Positions 240 through 56,224 of a stretch of 64,000 nucleotides of DNA are shown here, piece after piece (the first letter of the stretch is position 1; each line of letters opens with the position of its first letter). The DNA is taken from the NCBI GenBank assembly GCA_016906335.1, contig JADEYG010000007.1:1054001-1118000 (forward strand), in the 5' to 3' direction. The position numbers and the translations under genes are program-made. The DNA is from Novakomyces olei. Lineage: Eukaryota. Under the pieces are notes generated by a model. It saw nothing but the letters and a program-made list of their open reading frames with translations. It made no database searches and was not told where the DNA came from.

Positions 240-1091
240 ACGGTTAAAACAAGAAGGAGAAAAGGGGAATATATTCATGATTTTTCAAAAACTTTTATGG
301 ATATTCTCTAACGCGATCAGCGCATTTACCGCGCTACAATCCAGACAGGCTCTACATGTAGGAAGGTATTGCACTCTTCGCGCTCTCTGTCCCCTCGATA
401 AGATGAATTTTCCTTGAAATTCTTTGGCACAAAACAAGATTAAAAAGAAAAATAATATTATTATTATTTTTGGCATTAGAGTTGCGTCCATTCAAAATGG
501 CCGAGTATCCCGGGCTAGACTGCAGTAGAAAAAATGTAAACCAAACCGCGTCAGATTCGTATTCTGACGCCCCCGTCTCGTTTGCGCCTCGTTAAACACT
601 ATATTCTTCTAATTTTATTTTCAGTTTTCTTCAAGTATATATAATTTTGCGTGTATCTCCAAACATACTAGTTTATTCCCGGCCGGTCAGAAGAGATGCA
701 GCAAAAGTAAAACAAAATATATTATTGGAGCAGTTAAAAACAAGACTGCGCAATCAGCAAAAATTGGCACTGCTCTTTTTGTTGATTTCTACGTGAACGG
801 TTTCTCAGCCGAACGGTTCAGTGTGAAGAACGCGTATACCGAGTGTGGGTGTTTTTAATTTTTGATATTTTCATTCTCTTTGCCTCTTCGGAGCTGCTGA
901 GATCAAAATCGCGTTGAATCGTTGGGAAAACGGACGAATATTGGTTGCAAATATTATCTTTTTGGGGCCTATTGTAAAAGCTCTGATCTGGTACAAATCA
1001 CCGTCCTCGATTCCGAGCACAAGCCCGTTGTGTCTCGGATTATTTCCCCCTGTCTTTTAATCGTTATATCCGTGGCCCGCTTGTTCCATGT

Positions 1092-2947
1092 ATGATGTCT
1101 ACAACGAATGGTGAAGGAGACCAGAAGAACGGGTTTGTGGAAACAGATATGGAGTTGGAACAATTAGGTTCTATTGAAGACGACTTGAGTGCTATTCGTG
1201 GTCTGGAACAGCCGAGCGCCGCCTTGCAGCCGAGCGCCTCCTTGCACGTATCCGATCCTCATACTGAAACCTCTTCCTCGTCAAGTCTCAGCAGTGCTGA
1301 TAATGATCTTTTCAATGGATCAACGGAGGCCTTTTTAATGGGTACGGCAACAGATCGGGATCGGTTACTCGCAAAAAGGCCAAAGCGGGAAGTTACAAGC
1401 CGTCCGCGTTCCACAGATCTGGAACGTGTAGCATGGTCCCGTGTTTCGGCTTCCGGTCAATTACGAGAGGATAAGGGTGTCGTGGCTGGAAAGCGCGGGC
1501 GCAGAGACTCGGGAGCTTTGGATCAAAATGCTCTTACTCCCGCATCTTCACCTATTCGGCCCGGAGGAGAAGTCGAGAATGGAGGAAAAAGGAGGAAAAT
1601 ATCTATAAAAATTGCAAAGCAGCCTGACGCTGTTGAGGCTGTTACTACGTCTTTAGTATTAGCACCCTCTCCACCATTAGAGCACGTGAATGACCAAAGT
1701 ACATCGCATTCACCAGATACGGATTCGAAAATACGTAGGGTCAAGAAGAGTCCGATCAAAGGCCGGCGGAAACCAGAAGCTGGATCGCTGCCTAAGCTTC
1801 CCAAGCTGGTAGATCTCGCTTCTGAGTCTCAGGTTAATGGCACAGTTCAATCGGCGCCATCTGCACCTCCGGCAACTTCTGGATTCGCTCATGATGCTAT
1901 GCCCTGGGAAGGCAAGCCTTCTGAGGATGATCCAGCAAAGGTAAGGAAAGAATATACATTTAAATTTATGTCAAAGAGGGGACAAAGCAAAGGAATTAAA
2001 CAAATTTATCAATTTATTTATACCAAAATATGCAAATCAAAAGAAAAGGCAATATCAAAAGAGGCAGATGGAAAGAACCTCCAACCCCTCGAAATATCTG
2101 TGGCCGTTCGTACAGTGATTTATCATCAACGATCATAGCATTGTTCTAATACTAACGTCCTAGTACAACGAAGACTTTTGTGCAGTTTGCAGGGGCCCCG
2201 GCAGATTCTTGTGCTGTGAATCGTGTCCACGGTCCTTCCACTTCTTCTGTCTTGATCCACCGTTGGACGATGAAATTCTTCCAGACGAGGCATGGCACTG
2301 CAGAGTATGTATTGCTAAACGCTGGCCCCCACCCAAGCATCCACGTGGGATATTTTCTCAGCTGCTTGATAATGTTGATCGCAGCATCCCCGTCAAATTT
2401 CATCTGCCCGCGGCCATCCGCAGCTATTTCCAAGGCTGTGGTACGAACGAAGAGGGCGAGTATATCGATACTTTTGAAACAAAACCTCCCAAAATTGGCC
2501 GAAAGGGTTACGCAGAGGATCGTGATCCACAACAGTTGAAAGACAAGCACGGAAGATTGCTTTTATGCTTTGTCTGTGGTAAATCGGCACAAGGGTCTAG
2601 TGGAATCGTTGTATGTGATTACTGTCCTTCAGCCTGGCATTTGGACTGTTTAACTCCTCCATTGCCTGGAGTGCCTTCGAATACAAGACGATGGATGTGT
2701 CCGAATCATGCTCATCATTATACACCAAAGATGCGGATCCCGAGACGCGCCAAGGTGCACGATGTGTCCTTGAATCGTGGTTTTGTTAACAAGGGCAACG
2801 TTGAGGTTGATAACAGCGCTGAGGATCAAGCTCACCTTGACTCAATTGCCGCTATTATCGGCGACCGTGACGATTTTGAGCTGCAACATGTGAAGTATCG
2901 GCTGCCAGAGCACGGGCTCAAACTAGATTTTCTTGATCATGTCAAAC

Positions 2948-27930: not shown

Positions 27931-29520
27931 TTGCTATTTTATTTTATTTTTTTTGTTTTTTATTTTTTTTTCCCTTTCCTTATTTCCCTTTTACATCTTC
28001 TTATTAACTCTTACCATCAAAATTGTAAACTTTCTCATCGACAAAGTTCCTGGCGTATGCGGTATAATGCCCCCCACCGAGCCCACCGTAATGGTTGTCG
28101 ACAGCAAACAGGTCAAAAGTGTACGACTTTTCCGGCACATCGAGGCCGGCAGCCTGGCACGCCTTGAGCTGCCCTACTCGGCACGCCATGTCGAGGTCGT
28201 GGGTAGGAAAATCGATAAAATCGTCAATTTTGTCTCTATAGTGGCGCACATTGCTGAACCGTTTGAGGCAGAGCACGAGTATATCCGGCACTGTCCAGAT
28301 CTCTAGAGTCTTCTCTGCCTGCCGAAACTCACGGCACTTTGGGCAGTACCAAGGATCATCCTGGCCCAACCTTTCTGGCCGGGAAAACTCGTCGAGGCAC
28401 CTGTTGAGCGTAAGCAGCGACTGCCCAACCGTATCGCTATCGCCAGAGTCCGGATCGTTTAGACTTACAGACTCGTCCCACAGCGATTGGCCCACAGAGT
28501 CACTCGACTCTGAGTCTTCAGAGAACGTGTGTGCCCAATGGCTCCACGTGCAAGCAATGCCTTCGCCACTCTGGACGATTGCCGTCGGAGGCTCTTGCGC
28601 CCTCGACGGCAGTGGGAATATAGACGATACATTGTAATCCTCACTGTCAGACGCATCTCGCATCGGCAAATCTTCCACACTGTGTGGCGAAGAGCCTTCG
28701 CCTCCGTCTCCTGTGCTTTTGGCTTTTTCTTTGTCACTCGTTTGCTCTCTTTCTGCAACAGCTTTCTGCTCAAGTTTCTGCCCAGTGCCTTTGGCTTTTT
28801 CGTTGGGATTTTCTGCTGAGCCCTCTTTGTTGGCCTCCTCCATTCCTTCGTGGGCCTCTTTGATCTCTTCAGGGCCCTCCTCCATCTCTTCGTCCCGTCC
28901 CTCTCCGTCTATACTGCCGCCACGAGGAGATTGTGCTGCTGTCAGAGCGTCCAGCCGGTCCTGCACTGTCGTCTCACTGAAATAGCTCCAGCCTGTCGCC
29001 ATTTTACTGCCAACCTTGTCCATTATCGAAATCTGGAACGAGGCTTTTGGCTGTAAGTTTGGAGACGCCTCGTCCGACTGGCGCAGAGGCTCGGCAGACG
29101 GCACAGCGTCTGCCGACTCTTGTATCAGATCCTTTCGCGTCGTAAACTGCTCGCTCTTGTGCGCGATTCTAGAATAAATGGCAGACAAATCTTTACTCTC
29201 CGCCTCCGACAGCGTAATGAAGAAGGGCATCCCACAGTTTTTAGCCTGCTGCCTATTCTCCTCACTCGTCTTGTGAATAACGGGGACAGGGAATACTCCG
29301 CCTTCCGGATCAGCCTCCCTGTCGAGCTCGAAAAAGTACGCATCGTCTGAAGACGTTATACACGAAGCCACATTCTCGTACGGATCGTCGTAGTGCCGAA
29401 ATATCCGGCTCATGCATACTTCGCTGCCGATAATCTGTAAATTAGACAAATCCTGTTTTGGACACTTGTGATTATTCGATCGTTTATAGGTTTTTTTTAA
29501 TAATACATGTAGATTGTAAT

Positions 29521-29593
<73 letters not shown>

Positions 29594-31393
29594 AATTTTT
29601 TTTTAATTCTTTTTATTTATTTATTTATTTTTTAAAATTTATGGTTTTCCAATCTTAATTTTTCTTCTGATTCTCACCTTTTTTCGAGATTCGACGGAAA
29701 AAACACTACAAATCCGATCTACCAAATCCTCTATTGTGCAATTCTTGTCCAGCGTTATAGTCACCTTGGCCGGAAGCCGATTAATGTCGGCCGGAACGAA
29801 TACAATTTCATGAGTCCATTTCCGTTGCACGGGGAGGGGCAATGTTATATCTGTATATGGGTCAAAAGTAATAGATACCTTGGAACAAACGGGGCACACC
29901 AGCGTAGATTTGAACAGCCCTGTAAAAAGGTCAGTAATAACTGAATCGTTTCTCCTCAAATGATTGCCCCATGATTTCTCTGCCGTCTTTATCACCGTTG
30001 CTGGATCGTCAGACTCCAGCTCGGGCCGCTCTGTGTACGGTTTCTCGTACACTCGATTTAAATCTTCATGCAGGGAATCCAACAAGAACACGAGAAACTC
30101 TTGGGAATCTTGTTGAGTGTACCCGGCAAAGGAAGAATTGTAATGGCCAATGAGCCCTTTAAACTCGCGTGGAGAAAAGGACGCATGGTCTCGAGCATAA
30201 AGGTGGTGGCAAACTCGAGCATAAGACTCGGCTACCTTTCCATGCATTCCCAGAGGGTTGACTCGATTTATTTCCAATTTGAATGCATTCGACTGGAAAT
30301 AAGTCGCCAATTCGGGAGTATGAGACAGGCATTGTAAAGCGGAATTCATATAGCAGCTATTTCCCAAATTGCCCAAACCAATGGACCCGGGAGTGAAGCT
30401 CCTTTTCTGGTCATGGTGCGTGTGGGCAGGTGGCTTGTTGTGAGAACCTGCGGCAGCCGAGGCAGTCTGCCATTCGCCCAGTTTCTTTTGCTCGACGGCA
30501 AAAACCGTATCCTCCACAATCGGAACACAGAGCAGCGGCTCATCGAGAGACGCATAGTGCACAATATTGTCCTTATCACTCCCGTAATCCTTTGCAACAA
30601 AGTCCTTGGCCGAAACCTTTGGCGCAGTCATCCTGCTATTATTGCTCGGTATCCGCCACAAGCGAATCTCGACAGTCCCATAAATGCCGAGTGATTCTCT
30701 CGCACTGGCCAGCAGGTCTCGCACACAAGATGCCTTGGACATGTGTGCCTTTGGTGCACCTGCATCGCGGTGGGGAGCAGATGACGAGCTTAATGAAGAG
30801 GAATTTGCGTGCAAACCTGCGCCTGACGTAATCTCGCAAAAGGTGAAGCAAGGATAGTAAAGTTCCACTACGAGATTTGGTCGGGAACTGGGACTCGCCG
30901 TGTTTATAGCAGTGCGTGTAATTGCCACCGTATTGTCGGCCGGGAACCATTTCGTAATAAGGCTCCATAACTGTGGAGTCACAATTTCAAAGTCTGTGCC
31001 CTCTAATAAATCGGGCTTTAAATCGTTCGTGTCCGGATCGGCAATGGCCGACTGATCAACGGGCCCAGGAGGGATATCTACCGTCCGATCCAAATACCGC
31101 TCTAAACTATCCAGCCAAGTCTTACTCACCAGATTGTATGATTCGCCTTCACAGAGCTCGAATGAGCTGAGGTCGAGAAACGTCTGCTTCCATTGCTCCA
31201 GCGTATTATTGGCTCCCGGACGAGTCATCTTTGTAACGACCTGATCATTGCCGTTATCGCTGTTGCTGAAATGTTCTTGCATTAATGGCCGTTCTTGCTC
31301 GGCTGCCGTTTCGGCCGACTGCGACCGCAGCCTTTTCGACCCGAGAGTCTGGGTATCAAATGCCGCCTGCCCGTTGGCAAATGGATTCGCCAT
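27327..31393 (-). CDS. UBP12: Ubiquitin-specific protease Ubp12 (USP4/11/15 type, DUSP plus split UCH domain); introns approx. 29435-29677 and 27827-28014
   Basis: DUSP-like N-terminus; Cys box GLGNLGNSCYMNSALQCL, QQDSQEFL, WYCPKC, His box NHYGGLGGGHYTAY, AAYLLFYRRR. Confidence 0.92.
29522..29581. repeat. Approx. 60-nt poly(T) run in a UBP12 intron
   Basis: Directly visible homopolymer. Confidence 0.9.
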
Positions 31394-32393
31394 ATACTGG
31401 ACAAACAAAATGTCGAAATAATATAGAATTATCAGCCAGTCCGGGGCAGAATTCCGTCAAGAGCGGGATCGATTGGACGGTTGAGTAGATGAATATTCAA
31501 TAGCAAAATCGCCTTTGTCAGCTTTTGGCCTTGATGCTTCTGCGTCAATCTATATACATGCAAGAAGCAGACCATCGGCAATAGGCAAAGACTCTGACTA
31601 GGTTTATAGCGGCAGAAAATGCAAAGAATAGAACTATTGAATAATTAATAAATGAATTATTGATTAATTGATTAATTAATAACCGAGTTATTCATGAATT
31701 ATGGAAAAATTAATAAAACGAATTATCGATGAATTGAATAATTATTGAAAAATTATAAAATGGCAATGAAGCTGTATGGAAAAAGCATTTAATATTGAAG
31801 GCATTGTATTTCCGTATTAATATTATTTCAAAGACTGGAATTCCTAATATAAATAAAAAGCTGAATGAAACGCATAATGTTTGCCCATTACCACCGATAC
31901 CTTCATGTCGTGTCTTTAAAGTTACTGACTGCGCATCCGCGCTGTAAATCATTGGGGTTTTATTCAGAAAAGCGCACTGGCAAACATCAAACTAATGCAA
32001 AAATTGAATATGCATTTGTATATGTAAAATGCCACATACATACGTGTCAAAAAATACTAAATTATTTTCAGTATTTTCAGTATTTCCAGTATTTCCAGTA
32101 TTTCAGTATTTCAGTATTTTCAATATTTTCAATATTTTTAAACAGCAGACAAAATTGGCGTTTGTTGGCTTTGCAGTCTTTCATCACGCGGTGCTGATTG
32201 CTGTGGAAACACAGTGTACACTTATGCGCAAACTCTGAATCGCGAAATCGATAAAGCCCGATTGAGGGAAAAGTATAAAGAGCTGTAGCGTTGATCGTCA
32301 GACAAATTGTTGCGATCTGTTTTTAAAGCGGCTTTGCCGCTGGCGAAACGGCACCCGCATAGCCTACATGATTATAGTGTTTTGTCTGCCGAA

Positions 32394-34232
32394 ATGCCGC
32401 GATTAGACATGCGCGGCAAAGTCGTGCTTGCTCCAATGGTATCGTCAGCTCGTTAAAATGAGAGTGAAAAAATATATATTTATATACATCAAACATCTTT
32501 TGATTAAACGCACTGCCCATTCATTTCTATTGGCCAATTTTGGCAGAAACGTCTGCGTTCATATTCTAACTATACGCAGGTACGCACGGGCGAATTGCCG
32601 CTGCGATTGGAAGCGTTAAAGTACGGAGCCGATTATGTTTGGGGACCGGAAATAATAGACAAGGCGCTATTATTGCCGGAGCGCGTTGTACGCAGTGTGC
32701 AAGACGGCATTGTCCGATTTGAGCGTAAAAATGTCGCTATAGCACGCATCCATGTGGCAGAAAAGCCAAAGCATGTATTTCAGATCGGAAGCAGTTCTCC
32801 CGACTTGGCTGTTGAGGCAGCAAGTATAGTGGCAAGCGATGTAGCGGCTATTGAACTCAACTGTGGATGCCCTAAGCACTTTTCTGTCCATGCTGGTATG
32901 GGCGCAGCCTTGCTCCAACAGCCAGAGGCTCTTGTGTCTATTCTGCGAGCGCTAGTAGACCGGGTTGGTCAGGTCTATGGAATCCCCATCTTTTGCAAGA
33001 TCCGTATTCTCGATACACACGAGGCAACTGTTGCTCTTTTACATCAAATTTGCTCCACCGGAATCGTAAATGTTACAGTACATTGCCGTACTGCGGTAAT
33101 GCGGCCGCACGAGGCAGCTTTGAGGCAGCGTCTCCACGGACTCGCGGAAATCTGTCACTCGTATGGCATCACCTGTGTTGCCAATGGTGACGTCAGTGAT
33201 AGAGCAGAAGCGTTGCAGTTAGTGGAGGCCACAGGGTTTGATGGAGCGATGCTAGCGAGTGCAGCAGAAACGAACCCTTCCGTCTTTCGGCCAGAGGGGC
33301 CTTTGCCCCACTTGCAAGTGGCTCAGTCGCTACTTGAACGCTGTATTTCCGTGGGCAATCATCGGTCTAATACAAAGTTTATGGTCGTCAATGTCTGGCA
33401 GGGAATGCCAAAGCGACAGCGCCATGGCAATGCTCTGCACAGTGCCAAGACAGAGGCGGATATGTGTGCTGCCTTGGGATTAGCTAGTGAGCCACTGGAG
33501 GAGACCACTAAACCTAGTGAATCTAATAGTCAATCAACTAATGGTGGACTGGGTTGCGATAAACTGGGTTGCGATAAACTGGGTTGCGATAAACTGGTTT
33601 GCGATAAACTGGTTTCCGGGATAAATACGACAAGCGCAAAGTCAAAACTGGTCACGTGCAGGGACAAGCTTGCGTTTGTGACTGTTGGATCTACTTCGTT
33701 TGATGCTCTTGTTGCACGCGTACTCGCCACAGATTTCTGTGAGCTGTTAGTAAGGCACGGGTTCAGCGAGCTGCGCGTCCAATATGGAGGAGGCGCGTCG
33801 ACTTTCCGTGATCTGCACCATGATGTTCCGGGGCTCGTTGTTTCGGGGTTTCCTTACGCGCCCTCGCTGGATGACGTGGTCGACTCGGCAGATCTGATTA
33901 TCAGCCACGCTGGCGCGGGTTCGATTCTGGGGGCCAAACGGGCGGGGAAGCCGGTTATCGTTGTGGCGAACGAGGGGCTGATGGATAACCATCAGCTTGA
34001 ATTGGCGTCTGAACTGGCAAAGGAGGGGATTGTGTCAACAGCCACCGTTTCACAGTTGCCTACAGTTTTGGACAGCCTTTTATCGTCAAGTACGGCACAA
34101 AAGCCGCTACCGGCGCCGAACGGTGAAGGGTTTGCTGCTCTAGTCGAGGAACAAATGGGGCTGACCCGGTGTGAGGCGGATGGGGATGGGAAGGGTTCAC
34201 GGCCGAGTAAAAGGGCGCGTCTCGCGGGATAG
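32394..34232 (+). CDS. Single ORF fusing tRNA-dihydrouridine(20) synthase Dus2/Smm1 (N-terminal) to Alg13 UDP-GlcNAc transferase catalytic subunit (C-terminal); intron 32439-32579
   Basis: MPRLDMRGKVVLAPM|VRTGELPLRL..LKYGA..V.GPEIIDK, FQIG, NCGCPK.FS..GMGAALL, ANGD (Dus2); then FVTVGST.FD.L, VQYG, IISHAGAGSI, N..LMDNHQ.ELA..L (Alg13); no stop between them. Confidence 0.85.
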
Positions 34233-35109: not shown

Positions 35110-37033
35110 TTATGCTTCAGGCTTGGCTGCAGGCGCGGATTCCTCGACGTTGCCCGAGGTGCCAAAGTATCTGCGTAAAGCCGGACCGTAAAAGTAAAAA
35201 ACAAATGGAATCACCACCATTCCCAGACTGATAAAAGCAAATACAAAGCTTGCCCACAAGTATCCCATATTCCTGTACATGGGAGTGATAAAAACAAGAA
35301 CGACAGCGGCACCACCCGAACGCATAAACGTCTTGGCAGCCAGTGCACTAGCAGCAAATTGAGCACTATCGATAATGAAATTGTTGACACTATAGTAGAT
35401 GACCACCATTCCTACTCCAAAAGGCAGCCCAGACAAGCAGGGAGCAATCCAAGGCACACCGTGGTGTGACGTAGATCCCAAGATGAAAAGCGAAATGGGA
35501 ATTAAAGGTGCGGTCCACATGGCCCCCACCAACCGATCCTCCGGCATGGGGTAGCCCCGCCTGCGGATATCGCGAATGTACTTGCGCTCGAAAATAGGCG
35601 TAATTACAACGGCAATAATGGCACCAACAATGATAGAAATAAACATGAGTGAAATGTAACCGTTTCGCCAGTTGTAGAGGTCGCCAAAGATGACAGGGAA
35701 GGCAAAGAAGAGGGCATACAACAGTGCATAAATAAGCAAAATGTAGAGGTTCATTAAATCCAAAACTGGATCAGTCATGATCAGCTTGAAAGGTCGGATA
35801 AGCGCAGTGTTGATAATCTGTCCCAGTGAGGCCTTGAAGATTTCTTGCTCCGTCATAATATTGGGATTGCCAGTTTCCTTGCGAAGCCGCTGAGCGCGTC
35901 TTTTCAACAGAGTCGGTGCATAAGTTTCTGGGCAGATAAAAGAGCCGCCCCACATGAGACCAGCAAATATCATGTTTGCCCAGTATACCCACTGCCAATT
36001 GGTGGCAACATCAATCCATCCGGAAACAACCGGTCCCAGTACAGGGCCGGAATAAGGCCCAGCGGAAAAGAACGCAATAGCCATACCTCGCTCATCACCG
36101 TCCCAAACGTCAGCGATAATACCACCGGCAAGAACAAGGCCAGAGGAGGCAAAAATTCCAGAGAGGACGCGGCACACCAACATGCCCGCAATGGTGGGGG
36201 AAAGAGCACAGGGAATTTGCAGGATAACGTAGATACCGAGGGAAATAATGTAAGTGTACTTGCGGCCGATAGTCTCGCTCAAACCTGCCCAAATCAAATT
36301 GCCAAACATGAAACCGGCCACCATGAAAGAGCAGGTAAGTGTGGCCACGTACTCGCTGCAATGAAACCGTTCTTGAAATTTGTCAAAGACCATAGTAACG
36401 ACGGCGGAACCAAAAGCGACACAGATAACGATAGTAGCCTGAAACAGCGTGATCACCCATTTTGTAGATTTTTTCCAGTTCTACACATCAATGATGACGG
36501 GTAAGCAATTTGTGCAAAGAAAAATGTGACATGGCTTCGCGACACCGCTGCCACCACGTCACGTAAAATGGAATATAATTATTGTCTTTTTCATGGTGGT
36601 GCCTTACCCTTGGGTTCTCTGGATCGTTGATTTTCCAAGTAACGAGTTCAATCTTGTCAGGCTCCACTTCTGCGGGCAGACGCGTGGCAGCGCGTGTTGC
36701 GACACGTGATAATGCGGTTTGTGTACGCGAAAGGCTTCCGCCTTCAGCAGTATTATTGGCGCCACTGGCATTAGACATAACGGCAGAAAGGGCATTGCTC
36801 TGTGCCTCAGATAAAGGCATCATGCCCTCCCGTGTCTCTTCCGTGTACTCCTGAGTGAACCCGGCTTCTGGCTCTGTTGTGTAAAACGGATAATTGATGT
36901 CCGGACGGTTAGTCGTGACATCGCGGATCGACTCGCCACGCGAGTTGTGGGATAGAACAGTGCGCAGCTGACTTTGCTGCTCCGCTGTCCGCTCCTCCTG
37001 CCGCTGTGACTCGAGATCCGCTTCTTCAGGCAT
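35110..37033 (-). CDS. MFS drug:H+ antiporter, DHA1 family (Tpo-like); intron 36481-36607
   Basis: W..NDPENPR|NW...KW, LSETIGRK, GPVLGPVVSGW, PETYAPTLL, PEDRL; about 12 hydrophobic segments. Confidence 0.92.
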
Positions 37034-38456
37034 TTTTATGTAGTGAGAATACTATGCAAACGGCACACAACACGGGGAACACGAGTGAGGATCGATGAAT
37101 AAAGATTGGTAAAAGGCGGTAAAAGGCAGTTTTTAATTCAACAAAACAATTGATTAAAAACGTCAGGCCTTCAATGCATATATCCTCAACGGAAAAAGGA
37201 ACAAATAACAGAATCAATTTGCAATTTGGCAGCATTGGCTCCTTTTATGCCTATCGCCACCAACAATGGCGGCCCCAAACGGGTAAGCCGGCGCCCTATT
37301 GAATCCGGTCTGGCCGTCCCGAACGGGAAAAGGGCCTGTTGGGCGTCAATCACCAAGGAAACCCTGACAGAATTATACTGCGTGTTTTATTCACAAGTAG
37401 TATATGACTATATACTTTATTGCCAAATGTCGTATATACAACGGGTTTTTCTCGCAATTTTATACATTGTAATCGGCACATGGTTACTGTTGCTAGGCAG
37501 AATTATTGCTTGCTCACTGCGATAACTCTACAGTCACACTTTTATGTTTGTTTACACTGTGTAAGAGTGGGCACTCTGCGCGAATTATACTGCACACAGT
37601 CTCGACACTGTCCATATGTCTAATCCATCGTTGCTCTAGAAGCATTCAAAACTAATATAATTCGTTATTCGCTTATGATTTATCAAGTCGTGGCTGATGC
37701 CGGCGAGTCGGGTTTGTCGTGTGCCCGACTCGTGGCCGCCGACTGTATAGCTGTCGCCGACTATACAGCTATGTCGCCGACTGTAATACATACAGCTGTC
37801 TGTCCGGCCAGATTGTCCTATTATGAAAAGATGATTTATTTTCTCCATTATCGTTGTTGTGCTGTCGATACCGGATTTTTATTTTTTACTTTGTTTTATT
37901 GTATTTTTTTTCATCACACTTCGATCCTGTCCGTTGCTCCCTCATCCAAGTATCGTTGCACGCTTATTCTTTATGTGGCGTTTTTTATTAATTCACACTA
38001 CTTGTTACTTGTTACTGAGGATAGATTGCAAATCATCTCGATTAAAGTCGTTATACACGCTTTTTAAGTAACCATCTCATTATACTTCCCAAACCATAGA
38101 ACCATAGAGCTCGTCCTACGCACAAAAATTCTTTTATATTCTTAATAAGTCATCGCCACATATTTTCGCCACATAAAATAAAGTAAAATATAATAAAATA
38201 TAATAATAATAATAATAATAATAATGTTGCGCGTTCGCTGTACCGGACAACAAGTCCGTTCTTGTGCTTTCAATTTTAAGGTATTTTCGTTGCTTTAGCA
38301 GCCTGTGCAAAATCTTATTGCAAGGTACAGCCGCCACGTGAAAGCCTGAAATCAGTTAGAGATTCAAGTAAAGTCATAGATTTTAAATAAACATGAGGAA
38401 ACACAAAACACGAAATATAAATATATATATATATATATTTTTTTTGTCCAAATCAA

Positions 38457-49305: not shown

Positions 49306-52300
49306 CTAAGCAGAGTAGTACCGCAGCAAAACAGGCGGCTCGCCCTCTCTCTGCCGGCCATCGTCCTGAGCAGAACTAGTTTGCTCAGGGCGAGCCGTCT
49401 CGGACTCGTCCGGGGCGGTAAACATCTTTGTACATTCACGGATTGCCTGCATTAGAGCGTCGGGCCGAACGGGTTTCGTAACGTACCCGTTCATGGAAGC
49501 CTGGAAGCATTTCTCCTTCCATCCCTTCATGGCGTGGGCAGTGAGCCCAATGATAGGAATCGGAGGCCGATTAATGCTTTCCTCCCAACGCCTAATAGCG
49601 GCAGTAGCCTCTATCCCGCCCATTACAGGCATCTGCACGTCCATCAGGATCAGATCAAAGTGCTTCAGCTTCACTAGATCCAAAGCCTCGAGCCCGTTCT
49701 CTACACACTCTACTCGGTGGTTGAACTTTTCCAGTATTTTAACAGCCAGCTTTTGGTTTATCGTATTGTCCTCTGCCAGCAGGACGTCGTAAGACACTTC
49801 CCGGTCCGAGACAGGCGGAGCCGCCCGGCTTTCCAGTGCCGGGAGAAGGGCATTGCCGAGGGCAATCATGTCTGTAGGCGTATTGCCGTAGGAGGTGACG
49901 CCAAGCTCCAGGCACGATCTCAGGCTCAAGTGAGGAATAGAAGGAGCCAGCAAAACGATAGGAATATAGCGCAGATGGTTGACTGCCCTCAGCTGCATTG
50001 CCGTTGTGAGAGAGTCGACGATAATAGTGGCGATTGAGGAGGTCTCCTCACCTTCCTTAATCTGCTCTGCCTCAGAGATTGAGTGTACTACGAGCGGCAC
50101 TAGGCCGAGCTCACGGACGACACTGGCAGCGCCGGTGCTGTCCACGAGCGTGTCAATGTACAGTACTGAATGGCCCTTGAAAGGAGCAAACTTTTTCAGT
50201 ATAATCTCGGGCGAAGTGCCTCCGAGCTTTGTCACTATTGTGAAATGGAACTCGCTGCCTCGTCCGGGAATACTGCGGACCCACACGTCTCCACGCATAA
50301 GGTTAATCAGCCTCTTTGAAATGGAAAGGCCGAGACCTGTGCCCCCATACTTTCGTGTCGTAGAGCCGTCTGCCTGGCAAAACGTATCAAAGATAACGTC
50401 CAGCTTGTCCTGCGGGATCCCGATCCCAGAGTCAGAGACGCAAATCTCGAGCGCAATCTCGTCCTCGCCTATAATGTTTTCCCTGCTAATACTGTGATTA
50501 ATACTGTGATTAATACTGTGATTAATACTGTGATTAATACTGTGACCTGTGCCGTGCAGGCTCATCATACTGCTGACCATGGGCTTTTCTGTGATTGCAA
50601 GAGCAGACGAAGGAGGCTGCGAGGTGGCAGCGTTCGATTCTGCCACAGAGAGAACGTGTTCCAGGCTGGCACGTTTAACAGAGACGGCAATTCTGCCCTC
50701 TGCTGTAAACTTTATAGCGTTGCCTACAAGGTTCGTAATGACCTGCCGCAGGCGTAAAGAGTCGCCTGTCAGCTGATCAGGCACGTTCCCATCCACGTCA
50801 AACTTGAGATCGAGGCTCTTTTGCGTAGCCTTTATCGCCAGAGTCTTGAGGACGCCAAAGATGGCAGAGCGGAGGGAGAAAGGGATATCCTCCACTGTCA
50901 TCCTGTTGGCCTCAATCTTGGAAATGTCCAATATATCGTCGATAATGCTGAGCAGCGAGTTGGCCAGGTTATGCACAATCATCAGGTTTTCCCGCTGTGT
51001 ACGGTTCAGCTCCGTTTCCAGCGTAAGTGCCGTCATTCCTATAATCCCGTTCATTGGTGTACGGATCTCGTGGGACATGTTTGCCAGGAACTCTGACTTT
51101 GCCCTGTTTGCCAGCTCTGCTGCCTCCCGAGCTGCCGTGTTCTTTTGGATAGAGTCGTGCAGGTTGTACACCATCTGGTTGATCTTGGTCTTGAGCCTGT
51201 CCATCTCGCCAGACGCCTCAACGGTAATAAAGCGGGTAAAGTCTCCGTCTGTGGCAGAGGCTGTAATCTGGGCAAAGGCCCTCACTTGGCTCGTAAGGTT
51301 CGCTGCCATAGTGTTCACGTTGAAGGTTATCTCCTTCCACAGCCCATGTACGTCATTTACCTGAGCTTGAACGCCCAATTTGCCGTCAATACCCACATCT
51401 CGAGCGACTTTGGTCACCTCAAAGGCAAAGACCTGCAGCCTGTCCACCATCGTGTTTATCGTAGACTTTAAGTCTAGAATCTCGCCCTGAGCATGAACCG
51501 TAATTTTACGTGACAGGTCGCCCATTGCCACTGCAGTAGTTACATTGGCAATCTCTCGTACTTGCTGCGTAAGGTTGTCGGCCATATTGTTCACGGCTAT
51601 CCGCAGATCCTTCCAGATGCCTTCCACGTTCTCCACGTGAGCCTGGCCGCCCAAACGGCCTTCTGTTCCCACTTCTCTTGCTACTCTGGTAACCTCGTAC
51701 GCAAAGGCACGCAGCTGATCCACCATGTTGTTGATCGTCTCCTTGAGCGCTTTTATCTCTCCTTTTGCATGAACCTCGATCTTTTGGCTCAAATTGCCTT
51801 TTGCCACTGCTGTTGTCACTGTGGCAATCTCTCGCACTTGAGACGTAAGTCGGGAGGCCATCAGGTTCACATTGTCTGTCAGCTCCCGCCACGTGCCCTG
51901 CACGTCCCGTGGATCAGCCTGTCCGCCTAAAATGCCTTCTGTTCCCACTTCACGAGCTACTCTTGTCACCTCGGTCGAAAACTCTTGCAAACGGCCCACC
52001 ATAGAGTTTATCGTAAGCTTCAAATCCAAAATCTCGCCCTGAGCATGAACCTCGATCTTGCGGGACAGGTCTCCATTAGCAACTGCCGTCGTCACCTCTG
52101 CTATCTGCCGTACCTGCGACGTCAAGTTGAGCGCCATTACATTCACATTGTCAGTTAAATCGCGCCATGTTCCCTCAACCCCCTGAATATTCGCCTGGCC
52201 GCCCAAGATGCCCTCTGTCCCGACTTCACGCGCTACTCTTGTCACCTCAAAGGAAAACTCCTGCAAAATATCCACCATGTAATTAATTGTCACTGCAAGG

Positions 52301-53789
52301 TCATTGATTTCGCCTTTGGCTTTGACATTTACTTTCTTGGAAAGGTCTCCTTTGGCCACCGCCGTGGTTACTTTGGCAATAGACCTTACTTGGTCCGTCA
52401 AATTTCGTGCCATCAAGTTCACATTGTCGGTAAGCTCTTTCCAGCAGCCACTGACCCCACCAATCTCGGCCTGGCCGCCAAGTCGGCCTTCCGTGCCCAC
52501 CTCTCGAGCCACACGTGTGACCTCGCCGGAGAAGAGTCGCAGACGGTCCACCATGTCGTTGATTGTCCTAGCATTAGTATGGCTGTAGACGTTTGATTAT
52601 AATTAAACAATGTATATTGCCATTGTCATAATTATTCGTAGCTATTTACTGTTGCAACTCACGATTTCAACTCCAATATCTCTACCCCATTGGCCTCAAT
52701 GGTAACTTTTTTCGATAAATCGCCATCCGCGACGGCTTTAGTGACTTCTCCAATACGACGCAGTGCCTCCAAGAAAGAGGCAGATGAGTGCCGTGATTTC
52801 TCAAGGTCCAATTCCAGCGCACGGACCCGAGCTCCGTTTTCTCTTGCGTACCTCACGTGCGCATCCTCCGACGACTGAAGCTGTTGGCGCAGCAATGCCA
52901 CTTGGCCGGCAAGTGCCTGCGTGTTAGCACCCATTAAGGTTTGAATAGGAAAACACTATATTTCATGATACACGTTCCAGTTTATTGGATCAATTCACTG
53001 AAAATGGCTTGAAAATATGCAGTTGAAAAGGCTGAAAATATGCAATTGAAAAGGCTGAAAAATATGCAGTTGAAAAGGCTGAAAATATGCAATTGAAAAG
53101 AACAAAAAATATGCAATTGAAAAGAACAAAAATATGCAATTGAAAAGAACAAAAATATGCAATTGAAAAGAACAAAAATATACAATTGAAAAAAAAAACA
53201 AAAACATGCAATTGAAAAGAACAAAAATATGCAATTGAAAAGAACAAAAATATACAATTGAAAAAAAAAACAAAAACATGCAATTGACAGAAACAAAGTT
53301 TTATCGTACAATATTGTCAGGTGTTGCGGCCACAGAGGGCAAAGAAATGACGGTATTCGAGTTTTCGACACTGTGCCGTTCACGAACGACCTTTTCGTCT
53401 GCAGAAAAACAAGCAGCAGAGGCAAGTTTGGCAGAAGAGGCCACAGGGGAAGGTGACCCGACTGCCCTTGTGCTCGGGTCCAACTCGAACGGCGAATCGT
53501 TGCTCCCGCTAACGTTATCGCTGCCGTTACTGCCACGAGTGGTGGCGGTGGCAGAGCGGGCCGTGCTGCCAGCCGAGCCTAGGATCGGTTTCTGCCTTGA
53601 TTCAAGGTACTGGAGCCGCTGGACGACGGCTCTGATTGCACTTTCGAGAGACTCGTGGACGTGGTCAAGTTCTTCAGGGTTCCCACTTGCAGCGAGAGGG
53701 AGGAGTGAGTGAGAGAGGTCAGGGTACACTCCATTGGCTGCGTGCTGAAGGATCGCTGTTGTCCGTGAAAGTGTGTCTGTTGCCGCCAT
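49306..53789 (-). CDS. NIK1: Group III hybrid histidine kinase (Nik1/Os-1) with poly-HAMP repeats, HisKA, HATPase and receiver domain; exons 53789-53310, 52916-52663, 52567-49306
   Basis: Six approx. 92-aa repeat starts (VT.AVA.GDLS.K / [15 protein letters not shown]); H box [19 protein letters not shown] box [11 protein letters not shown]1 and G2 boxes, receiver [10 protein letters not shown]. Confidence 0.96.
52995..53290. repeat. Approx. 22-24-nt minisatellite (aaatatgcaattgaaaagaaca) filling NIK1 intron 1
   Basis: About a dozen variant copies visible. Confidence 0.9.
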
Positions 53790-54452: not shown

Positions 54453-55421
54453 GTCGAGTATTGACTTGTGATCTACATTGTTTGTGTAATTATCCGACTG
54501 ATGAGCATCTGTTATGCGATAGTGTGCCATGCACGCGTCGGAGAATGCTTGACGGTTGCACAATCCATGAAAATTTCAGTATATGCTCTCCATGATTTTG
54601 ATGGTGCGCTATATTTGTTGGATGAATAAATAAATACATACATACAAGCAAGCCCAAGGCAATGCTCGCTTTCCATTTGAGACTAGCTGGCCTGAAACTG
54701 CAAGCTGCAATTGTTTATTTATTTATTTATTCATCATTTATTCATTTGCAATTAATTGCTCGCATATTCCTGTCCTTTCAGTCGCAATGTATATTACTAT
54801 AATGTACTTGACTCTACGGCAAAAAGTATTACGCAGTCAAGATGGGCATTGGCCACTGCTTACAGACGACGTAAGAGTTTGGTAGACGGCTGTGTTTATT
54901 CAATGTAAGGACTGCTCTAAAGTGGGGTGAGAGGCTTTTACTCTATATTGCGGGGAAATGGCTGTAGCTTTTTGCTGTCAGTTTTGTCAGTTGACGTAGC
55001 GCGATAGAGTCGACCCGACATTATGTCGCAGCCGAATAAAATGTCAAGCCAGTAGACCTGTCATGCAAGTAGACCCAAAACCTAGATTTTAAGACGAGCA
55101 AAAAAATAGAAACCCCCAAACAACTCGCAGTGAATGGCAAGAAGGATCCTGCACTGGCAGCCTGCACTGGCAACCTGCACTGGCAGTTTTATATTGCCTT
55201 GACATCACGCATTTGCCCATCTTATTGTGAATCAGATTCATTTCCACTTGAACCTCCCTGCAGGCCTGGGTACACAACAGCATCGGCCAGACTTTTTCGT
55301 TTTGCATCACTCTATCATTCTACAGCACTAAAGTACCGCTACAAAGACACTGGGCACAAGAACGTTGAATTAATTAATGCTAAACTTGACTAGTCCGGGT
55401 GCGAAACGTTATTCTCGCAGT

Positions 55422-55872
55422 CTATTGCTTGTTCTTCAAGTTGGCCTCAAACTCGTCAGCCTCCTTCTTGGCAGCGGCCGCCTTCTTGCGCAAAGCAGCG
55501 AGTTTCTCGTTCTCGTGCTGTCTCACGTAATAATCCTCGTTGGCCTTTTCACGCTTGGAGAAGGCATCACTTTATATCATTAGCATCTCTGCATCTCAGG
55601 CGGCCAACCACAGGTTGGCCGATCTTACCCTCCCTCGCGGTGTACCGGGATAGGTCCGTCTATATCGCCATGTTAGATTTGTCATTGTGCGAGGTAAGGC
55701 TTGTCTCCCCATCGCTCAGTGTGGGGGGAAAAAGCCGGCTGGTCAACATACCATTTCCATCGCTTTTTGTGGCGTTGGAAGCCAAACGCAGACCGCGCGG
55801 GACGGCGGCGGCGGACGTGCGGGACGCACAAAGACCAGAGAAAATCGTGGCTTGTGAGTTACGGGCGATCAT
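55422..55872 (-). CDS. INH1: Mitochondrial F1Fo-ATPase inhibitor (Inh1/IF1); exons 55872-55752, 55659-55629, 55569-55422 (99 aa); not called correctly in the ORF track
   Basis: Two GT-AG introns with CTAAC/CTAAT branch points join to 300 nt: presequence MIARNSQATIFSGLCASRT..., then GGDAFSKREKANEDYYVRQHENEKLAALRKK. Confidence 0.9.
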
Positions 55873-56224
55873 CGTGCTTGCTCTTGTTCCGGAAAAGATT
55901 CCTCCAGAAATTACGAAAGTGCGGAAGTATTGGGCGAGTGAGGTTATTGCGAGTCCTCTATTGTACGCACAATATAATTGTGTAATGCACGAAAAACAGT
56001 GCACTACTTTTTGCTGTTAATTGTCCATAAAACGTGCGTACCGCCGCACAAAGTTTTACAATAAAAACCTATACAATAAAAACCATTAAAATAACTACAC
56101 TATTATAAGCTGCCTCTGCCATACCCGCGCGTTTATCGTACTGTATCCTGCCTGCCGGGTCCAAGGAGTGTATAATGTATATGATAATTACTCGGCAAAG
56201 ATGACGGTAAGCGTGCACATAAAG

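Follow-up and report, generated by a model that had tools for sequence, protein, structure and literature searches.

Dus2 is the flavin mononucleotide (FMN)-dependent enzyme that reduces U20 of transfer RNA (tRNA), and Alg13 is the soluble half, binding uridine diphosphate N-acetylglucosamine (UDP-GlcNAc), of the Alg13/Alg14 transferase, whose product, GlcNAc2-PP-dolichol, is formed on the cytosolic side of the endoplasmic reticulum (ER); the C-terminal helix of Alg13 has a role in binding Alg14. According to section 3.4.4 of PMC9775027, Dus2 is followed in all Schizosaccharomyces species by a domain some 145 amino acids (aa) in length with a Rossmann-type fold and a role described as unknown, and the accessible parts of that paper do not identify the origin of this 'Rossman fold domain'. 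Fungi and plants, on the other side, have only a short Alg13 according to PMC9527342. We describe here a 64,000-nucleotide (nt) stretch of the genome of Novakomyces olei (assembly GCA_016906335.1, contig JADEYG010000007.1, positions 1,054,001 to 1,118,000 of the forward strand; hereafter the window, position 1 being its first letter), in which a single gene at 32394..34232 joins a Dus2 to an Alg13 in one reading frame. An earlier reading of the letters without database searches, which we call the sequence-only reading, had proposed a genuine in-frame DUS2-ALG13 fusion, and the proposal is now supported by the intact state of both domains, by a second protein with the same architecture (P0002) and by what appears to be a relic of the same arrangement in Schizosaccharomyces. 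The explanation that we consider quite probable is that of an old, real and retained gene fusion, transcribed into one mRNA with one 5' intron and translated into a 565-aa chain, which would be bifunctional in N. olei and would have decayed in Schizosaccharomyces.

The coding sequence of the fusion is join(32394..32438, 32580..34232) on the forward strand (+), on which all parts of the gene lie, and it specifies 565 aa. Exon 1 (32394..32438) opens with the frame's first ATG as start codon and comprises 15 codons ending in APM; this last Met belongs to the conserved Dus2 APM-VR motif, in a column shared by 95% or more of 119 Dus2 proteins. An in-frame stop is found soon after 32438, and splicing is therefore needed for the frame to continue. 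The predicted intron (32439..32579, 141 nt) was placed by aligning the protein with P0002 and further Dus2 proteins, has GT..AG borders and a CTAAC branch-site-like motif 9-13 nt before the AG, and its removal joins APM to VRTGELP, the same junction as the APMVR(S/T)G(D/E)LP of Dus2 from other fungi. Exon 2 (32580..34232) consists of 550 codons and the stop codon at 34230..34232, with both enzymes in one frame, and the frame is in fact free of stops over 574 codons (32508..34232), so that the single open frame after one 5' intron of the sequence-only reading is borne out. The 550-aa product of exon 2 (P0001) was used as the working protein, and all aa numbers below refer to it. Its Dus2 part (32580..33515, aa 1-312) holds the FMN TIM-barrel catalytic domain and the helical domain; a linker modelled with low confidence and probably disordered spans 33477..33662 (aa 300-361); a complete Alg13 domain, the UDP-GlcNAc-binding C-terminal half of a GT-B-type glycosyltransferase, spans 33663..34172 (aa 362-531, C-terminal helix included), very close to the limits of about 33668-34170 first proposed for it; and the C-terminal tail (34173..34229), again a low-confidence model, finishes with the basic sequence SRPSKRARLAG (34197..34229), within which lies the RPSKRARL already noticed, a candidate nuclear localisation signal. 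A 9-nt tandem repeat (TATTTTCAG, 8.7 copies with 92% matches) occupies 32063..32138, about 260-330 nt upstream of the start codon of the fusion, in what is presumably its promoter region.

Both Pfam families to which the sequence-only reading had pointed, PF01207 and PF04101, are matched above their curated cut-offs. The match of the Dus2 half to PF01207 (Dus) has an E-value of 1e-41 (143.5 bits against a cut-off of 20.4) over aa 50-269, and the NCGCP motif (N94-P98), part of the active-site loop in Dus enzymes, is found at 32859..32873, which agrees with the TIM barrel and motif that had been claimed. The best solved relative is the human tRNA-dihydrouridine(20) synthase (4.9e-48, aa 1-312), with DusB, DusC and the Dus of T. 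thermophilus matching the Dus2 part at 1.9e-14 or weaker, and the named top matches are all annotated as Dus2 or are uncharacterised ascomycete proteins; such matches place this half in the Dus2 subfamily, and not with Dus1, Dus3, Dus4 or the bacterial Dus enzymes. Out of 86 columns conserved in at least 95% of the 119 Dus2-only relatives, 78 are kept, among them Q68, N94, G96, C97, P98, K140, H168 and R170, and of the eight misses one is the exon-1 Met and most of the others are conservative changes. The catalytic and FMN-binding roles of the corresponding Dus2 residues (the Met before VR, the Gln, the Asn and Cys of the NCGCP loop, the Lys of KIR and the HCR) are given in the accessible sections of PMC9775027.

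The Alg13 half matches PF04101 (Glyco_tran_28_C) with an E-value of 1.4e-24 (87.5 bits, cut-off 22) over aa 365-513, our local Alg13 profile matches aa 362-531, and the yeast Alg13 structures match this part at about 2e-21. By tblastn, residues 6-162 of a stand-alone Alg13 of 165 aa align at 33675..34151, and a second stand-alone Alg13 is covered from residue 2 to residue 163 of its 163. Among 44 columns conserved in at least 80% of 60 stand-alone Alg13 proteins the fusion keeps 41, including all 17 that are fully invariant. Aa 300-550 were modelled by AlphaFold2 with the help of 49 Alg13 relatives, and the model has a predicted local distance difference test score (pLDDT) of 83-98 over aa 360-519 and of 61 or less from aa 530; among the structures of the Protein Data Bank (PDB), Foldseek ranks yeast Alg13 (2jzc, E=1.1e-8) as its best fold match, ahead of GT-B transferases, MurG among them. 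An Alg13 domain is present, even though this is not a canonical free-standing Alg13 gene with its own start codon, and, going by the residues they retain, both halves look catalytically intact.

Between the two enzymes the same model gives a pLDDT of 47-64 (aa 300-359), and the linker contains a tandem repeat of GCDKL-like units, in which the four copies of 15 nt that had been reported were recovered by Tandem Repeats Finder (33548..33612, period 15, 4.3 copies, 98% matches, score 123). Shuffling the 186-nt linker 20,000 times left it free of stops in 1.5% of cases (P=0.015), and in the actual sequence the other two frames are closed by 2 and 12 stops within the linker and by 22 and 34 across exon 2; the openness of the linker is thus beyond chance, and it is open only in the frame that joins the two enzymes. 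In-frame Met codons occur in exon 2 at aa 107, 174, 224, 268, 276, 295, 468 and 526, so that the frame has no Met from aa 296 to aa 467, with the Alg13 domain starting near aa 362. The observation that the Alg13 part has no Met of its own, the nearest being about 70 codons upstream, therefore holds, and that nearest Met is M295, which belongs to the Dus2 helical domain and is conserved in unfused species too. A pattern scan of the linker and its surroundings (33380..33720) found no intron candidate of the form GTRNGY..CTRAY..YAG. The GC content at third codon positions (GC3) is 0.39 in the linker, 0.50 in the Dus2 part and 0.57 in the Alg13 part.

The joined architecture is rare, not unique. 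A word-indexed search of 5.8 billion proteins, a collection from which the fusion's own protein is absent, scored 8,000 candidates and gave 632 significant matches, and among the best 120 of these P0002 (585 aa) is the sole protein with both Pfam domains, the remaining ones being Dus2-only ascomycete proteins with 43-54% identity. P0002 is 40% identical to P0001 over 98% of the query and has the same domain order, with a linker of similar length and unrelated sequence that is likewise open and has no Met before the Alg13 part, so the architecture is conserved beyond N. olei. It is, with P0002, the property of one in 265 Dus-family relatives examined, far from the common database architecture that would have made the locus ordinary. 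When the Alg13 part was searched against proteins 302-963 aa in length, 12 matches came back, none of them joined to Dus; P0002 was missed here, which limits the reach of this search. When 1.84 billion cluster representatives were searched exhaustively with a profile (12,201 matches), no Alg13 part was seen in the best 150, and because P0002 was itself absent from those 150 while being part of the query profile, fused forms can evidently hide behind Dus2-only representatives. The ESM Atlas gave no usable match for the whole fusion or for the Dus2 tail of S. octosporus. The sequence-only reading knew of no described Dus2-Alg13 fusion, and in this it agrees with our search of the full-text literature on Alg13 together with Dus2 or dihydrouridine synthase, and on dihydrouridine together with glycosyltransferase family 28, where no such fusion is described. 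The Dus2 survey of Lombard et al. (2022), covering 390 sequences, names in its accessible parts six C-terminal fusion partners, with Alg13 not among them, and the words 'glyco' and 'alg13' are absent from one of its supplementary files (PMC9775027).

The Dus2 proteins of Schizosaccharomyces are 462-486 aa long and continue for about 150 aa past the helical domain. We built a profile of this tail (residues ~335-450) from five proteins, four of them from named Schizosaccharomyces species and one Schizosaccharomyces-like (P0005, P0008, P0011, P0015 and P0021), and compared it by hhalign with 60 stand-alone Alg13 proteins, obtaining a probability of 95.8 (E=8.1e-9, score 59.4, 92 columns); the reversed template gave 14.0 (E=0.26) and 30 column shuffles gave 17.7 or less (E of 0.047 or worse). 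When 391 sequences were ranked with an Alg13 hidden Markov model (HMM), four of the tails came right behind the true Alg13 proteins, all in one register (E 0.0018-0.053). The S. octosporus tail is modelled by AlphaFold2 with a pLDDT of 68-83, and its elements follow the order strand-helix-helix-strand-helix-strand-helix-strand-helix-strand-helix, the same as in the model of the fusion's Alg13; predicted secondary structure agrees at 72 of the 93 sites aligned by hhalign, compared with 18-54 of 93 in 14 shifted registers. The tails lack nearly all Alg13 signature residues. On the strength of these comparisons, we identify the Schizosaccharomyces Dus2 tail as a homologue of Alg13 that has lost its catalytic motifs, an origin for which a literature search on Dus2, Schizosaccharomyces and Rossmann found no earlier paper. 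The Schizosaccharomyces species also own a stand-alone Alg13 of 163-165 aa, and these free proteins are the closest relatives of the fusion's Alg13 part (44-48% identity). The tail profile, in turn, finds the four Schizosaccharomyces proteins and P0021 with E of 6.8e-27 or better and P0001 only at E=1.3; by this measure the fusion's domain is a true Alg13, outside the close family of the tails, and not the decayed form.

In the Dus2 tree (26 rows, root unknown) the fusion's Dus2 and that of P0002 are sisters with support of 99/96, and a split supported by 90/93 separates the fusion, P0002, Pneumocystis and Schizosaccharomyces from 18 rows of Saccharomycotina and Pezizomycotina. The Dus2 of Pneumocystis (326 aa) has no tail and is the sister of the Schizosaccharomyces proteins in this tree. 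On its protein matches and this one tree, the organism falls among deep-branching, ascomycete-like fungi. In a supplementary table of PMC9775027, Taphrina deformans has the entries 1, 0, 1, 1, in contrast to the 1, 1, 1, 1 of most fungi; supposing that its columns stand for Dus1-4, no Dus2 orthologue was detected in this species.

Taken together, these data suggest a chain in which a catalytically competent Dus2 would be followed by a flexible linker of about 60 aa and by a complete, competent Alg13, the two enzymes acting independently within a single product. The Alg13 half would dock on the membrane-bound Alg14 through its retained C-terminal helix, and we propose that part of the Dus2 pool would therefore be held at the ER surface. 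The fusion may have begun as two neighbouring genes and would be old, being common to N. olei and the distant P0002 and ancestral to the Rossmann-fold domain behind Dus2 in Schizosaccharomyces, where a free Alg13 would have taken over, or been retained, and the fused copy would have decayed to a non-catalytic domain. Going further, one could imagine a functional coupling, in which the whole lineage, fission yeasts included, holds Dus2 on the cytosolic side of the ER by docking of its Alg13 or Alg13-like domain on Alg14, with the decayed Schizosaccharomyces domain kept as a pseudoenzyme for docking or sensing. We regard such coupling as improbable; if it were true, however, it would tie dihydrouridine formation in tRNA (in fission yeast possibly also in mRNA) either to translation bound to the ER or to N-glycan precursor flux.

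We acknowledge that several points weigh against the history of an old, bifunctional fusion. The single product is deduced from the open reading frame itself, and the long human ALG13 isoform 1 does not bind ALG14 according to PMC9527342, so that extensions of Alg13 are not always compatible with its function; isoform 1, in fact, lacks the C-terminal region, which is present in the fusion. The pairing of the fusion with P0002 joins two long branches and was flagged by the tree tool as possibly false, while the Alg13 tree (25 rows) is poorly resolved and did not recover the two fused domains as sisters. The tail-less Pneumocystis means that an old fusion must have been lost at least once. For the Schizosaccharomyces tail, an HMM-to-sequence search of the PDB with a profile of the full-length Dus2 returned Dus chains and no Alg13, even with E up to 10, and Pfam gave a weak GT-B-type match in one species only (Epimerase_2, E=0.054). 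The homology of the tail could be to the C-terminal halves of GT-B enzymes in general rather than to Alg13 specifically. Foldseek matched the S. octosporus Dus2 model, taken at full length, only to Dus, TIM-barrel and further multi-domain structures, and because TIM-barrel matches swamped this search it is silent on the tail. Lastly, tblastn found neither ALG14 nor a second Alg13-like sequence within the window, and the genome beyond the window may hold a stand-alone ALG13.

These points bear on how the locus should be read. Its openness might be the product of a sequencing or assembly error that erased a stop or a frameshift between neighbouring genes, and the near-perfect tandem repeat of the linker is indeed of the type that assemblers can mis-size. 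The repeat unit of 15 nt is a multiple of three, however, and an error in copy number cannot shift the frame; moreover, the Alg13 part has no start of its own and the Dus2 part no stop anywhere in frame, the unrelated record P0002 has the same fused open reading frame, and the relic is present in the fission-yeast genomes, all of which makes an artefact very hard to credit. Another possibility, which we find unlikely, is that one locus yields mainly separate Dus2 and Alg13 proteins, because transcription starts internally and translation at M295 or at a non-AUG codon, because of alternative splicing or polyadenylation in the linker, or because of its proteolysis. A linker so long and modelled with so little confidence would be accessible to proteases, its GC3 is below that of both enzyme parts, M295 is conserved between the fusion and P0002, and Alg13 is usually a small free subunit, of which fungi have only the short form according to PMC9527342. 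M295 is conserved also in unfused Dus2 proteins, where a start for Alg13 is impossible, and its conservation is therefore uninformative on internal initiation; the stretch of 70 codons ahead of the Alg13 domain has no Met, nor is there one in the P0002 linker, and the linker of the fusion has no intron-like signal in the pattern scan. Separate products would leave nothing to preserve an open, in-frame linker in two lineages that are only 40% identical.

A similarly small chance is given here to the idea that the fused Alg13 is a spare paralogue beside a stand-alone ALG13 and serves Dus2 in some other way (regulation, localisation or UDP-sugar sensing), as the decayed Schizosaccharomyces domain must do. 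Schizosaccharomyces has exactly this layout, a free Alg13 plus an Alg13-derived Dus2 tail, and our search for a second copy covered 64 kb of the N. olei genome only. The fusion, however, keeps 41 of the 44 conserved Alg13 columns and every invariant one, whereas hardly any of them survive in the tails, which exist alongside a free Alg13; this is the pattern expected if the fused copy is still the working enzyme, and an identity of 44-48% to stand-alone Alg13 is what is usual for orthologues. A retained fusion that would still work as both enzymes in N. olei remains, for these reasons, the account that we favour.

The other genes of the window are ordinary fungal housekeeping genes, and neither Rfam families nor tRNA genes were found in its 64 kb. 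Divergent from the fusion gene, two adjacent long frames at 28004..31456 (-) resemble one gene for a DUSP-UCH ubiquitin hydrolase, interrupted near 29584..29639 by a short intron. At 49306..52596 (-) lies a gene for a hybrid histidine kinase in which repeated HAMP domains are combined with HisKA, HATPase and a receiver domain; we take it to be of group III (Nik1/Os-1 type), a kinase that is not known from S. pombe or S. cerevisiae, which would hint weakly that the organism is closely related to neither. Four frames of 187-383 codons (987..2138 and 55394..56020 on the + strand, 52982..53578 and 36488..37051 on the - strand) have no Pfam match at an E of 1e-5 or better and are candidate genes.

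If the halves of the fusion simply work side by side, it is a curiosity of gene architecture, made of two known enzymes in an arrangement that is undescribed in the literature we searched. The locus nonetheless contradicts the published statement, in PMC9527342, that fungi have only the short Alg13, and it suggests where the functionally unassigned domain in the Dus2 of a model organism came from, a domain that would be an Alg13-derived pseudoenzyme. It is also a natural test of whether Alg13 can carry a large N-terminal cargo and still pair with Alg14. Should the old-fusion history be true, the intact fusion, the decayed fusion with a free gene and the tail-less Pneumocystis would form a series on how fused enzymes split and decay.

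Among known systems, the Dus2 of Schizosaccharomyces (S. pombe O74731, 479 aa in a table of PMC9775027) has the same order of TIM barrel, helical domain and an alpha/beta domain of about 145-170 aa, and the Dus2 parts of this genus are 48-54% identical to that of the fusion. The differences are found behind the helical domain, as the Schizosaccharomyces tail lacks the Alg13 motifs TVG(S/T)T, SHAGAGS and LMDNHQ, all kept by the fusion, and is reached through a linker of about 20 aa instead of about 60, with a free Alg13 encoded besides. With stand-alone Alg13 (PDB 2jzc and 2ks6, and the 163-165-aa proteins of Schizosaccharomyces) the fusion shares a full-length match, the motifs and the region of the C-terminal helix, but its domain lacks a separate start codon, is preceded by about 360 aa of Dus2 and linker and is followed by about 20 extra basic residues. 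Other Dus2 fusions, with dsRBD in animals and with ZnF_U1, Pyridox_oxase_2, a NUDIX zinc ribbon, ICL_KPHMT or PQ-loop/CTNS (section 3.1 of PMC9775027), always carry the extra domain C-terminal to the helical domain in that survey, and the Dus2-Alg13 fusion follows the same rule. Our searches also turned up Alg13 joined to a DHHC palmitoyltransferase domain in Lagenidium and to Myb/CDC5-like domains in a bee record that is possibly a gene-model artefact (P0122 and P0133). An Alg13 domain within a larger polypeptide is likewise found in human ALG13 isoform 1 (a GT28 part with OTU and further domains; PMC9527342) and in Alg13/Alg14 fusions from our searches. The Alg13/Alg14 fusions, which occur in both orders (P0123 and P0132), recreate a whole enzyme similar to MurG, while isoform 1 is missing the C-terminal region of the short form and, according to PMC9527342, shows neither ALG14 binding nor transferase activity. 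In the N. olei fusion, by comparison, the Alg13 domain is complete and its partner is an unrelated RNA-modifying enzyme placed at the N-terminus.

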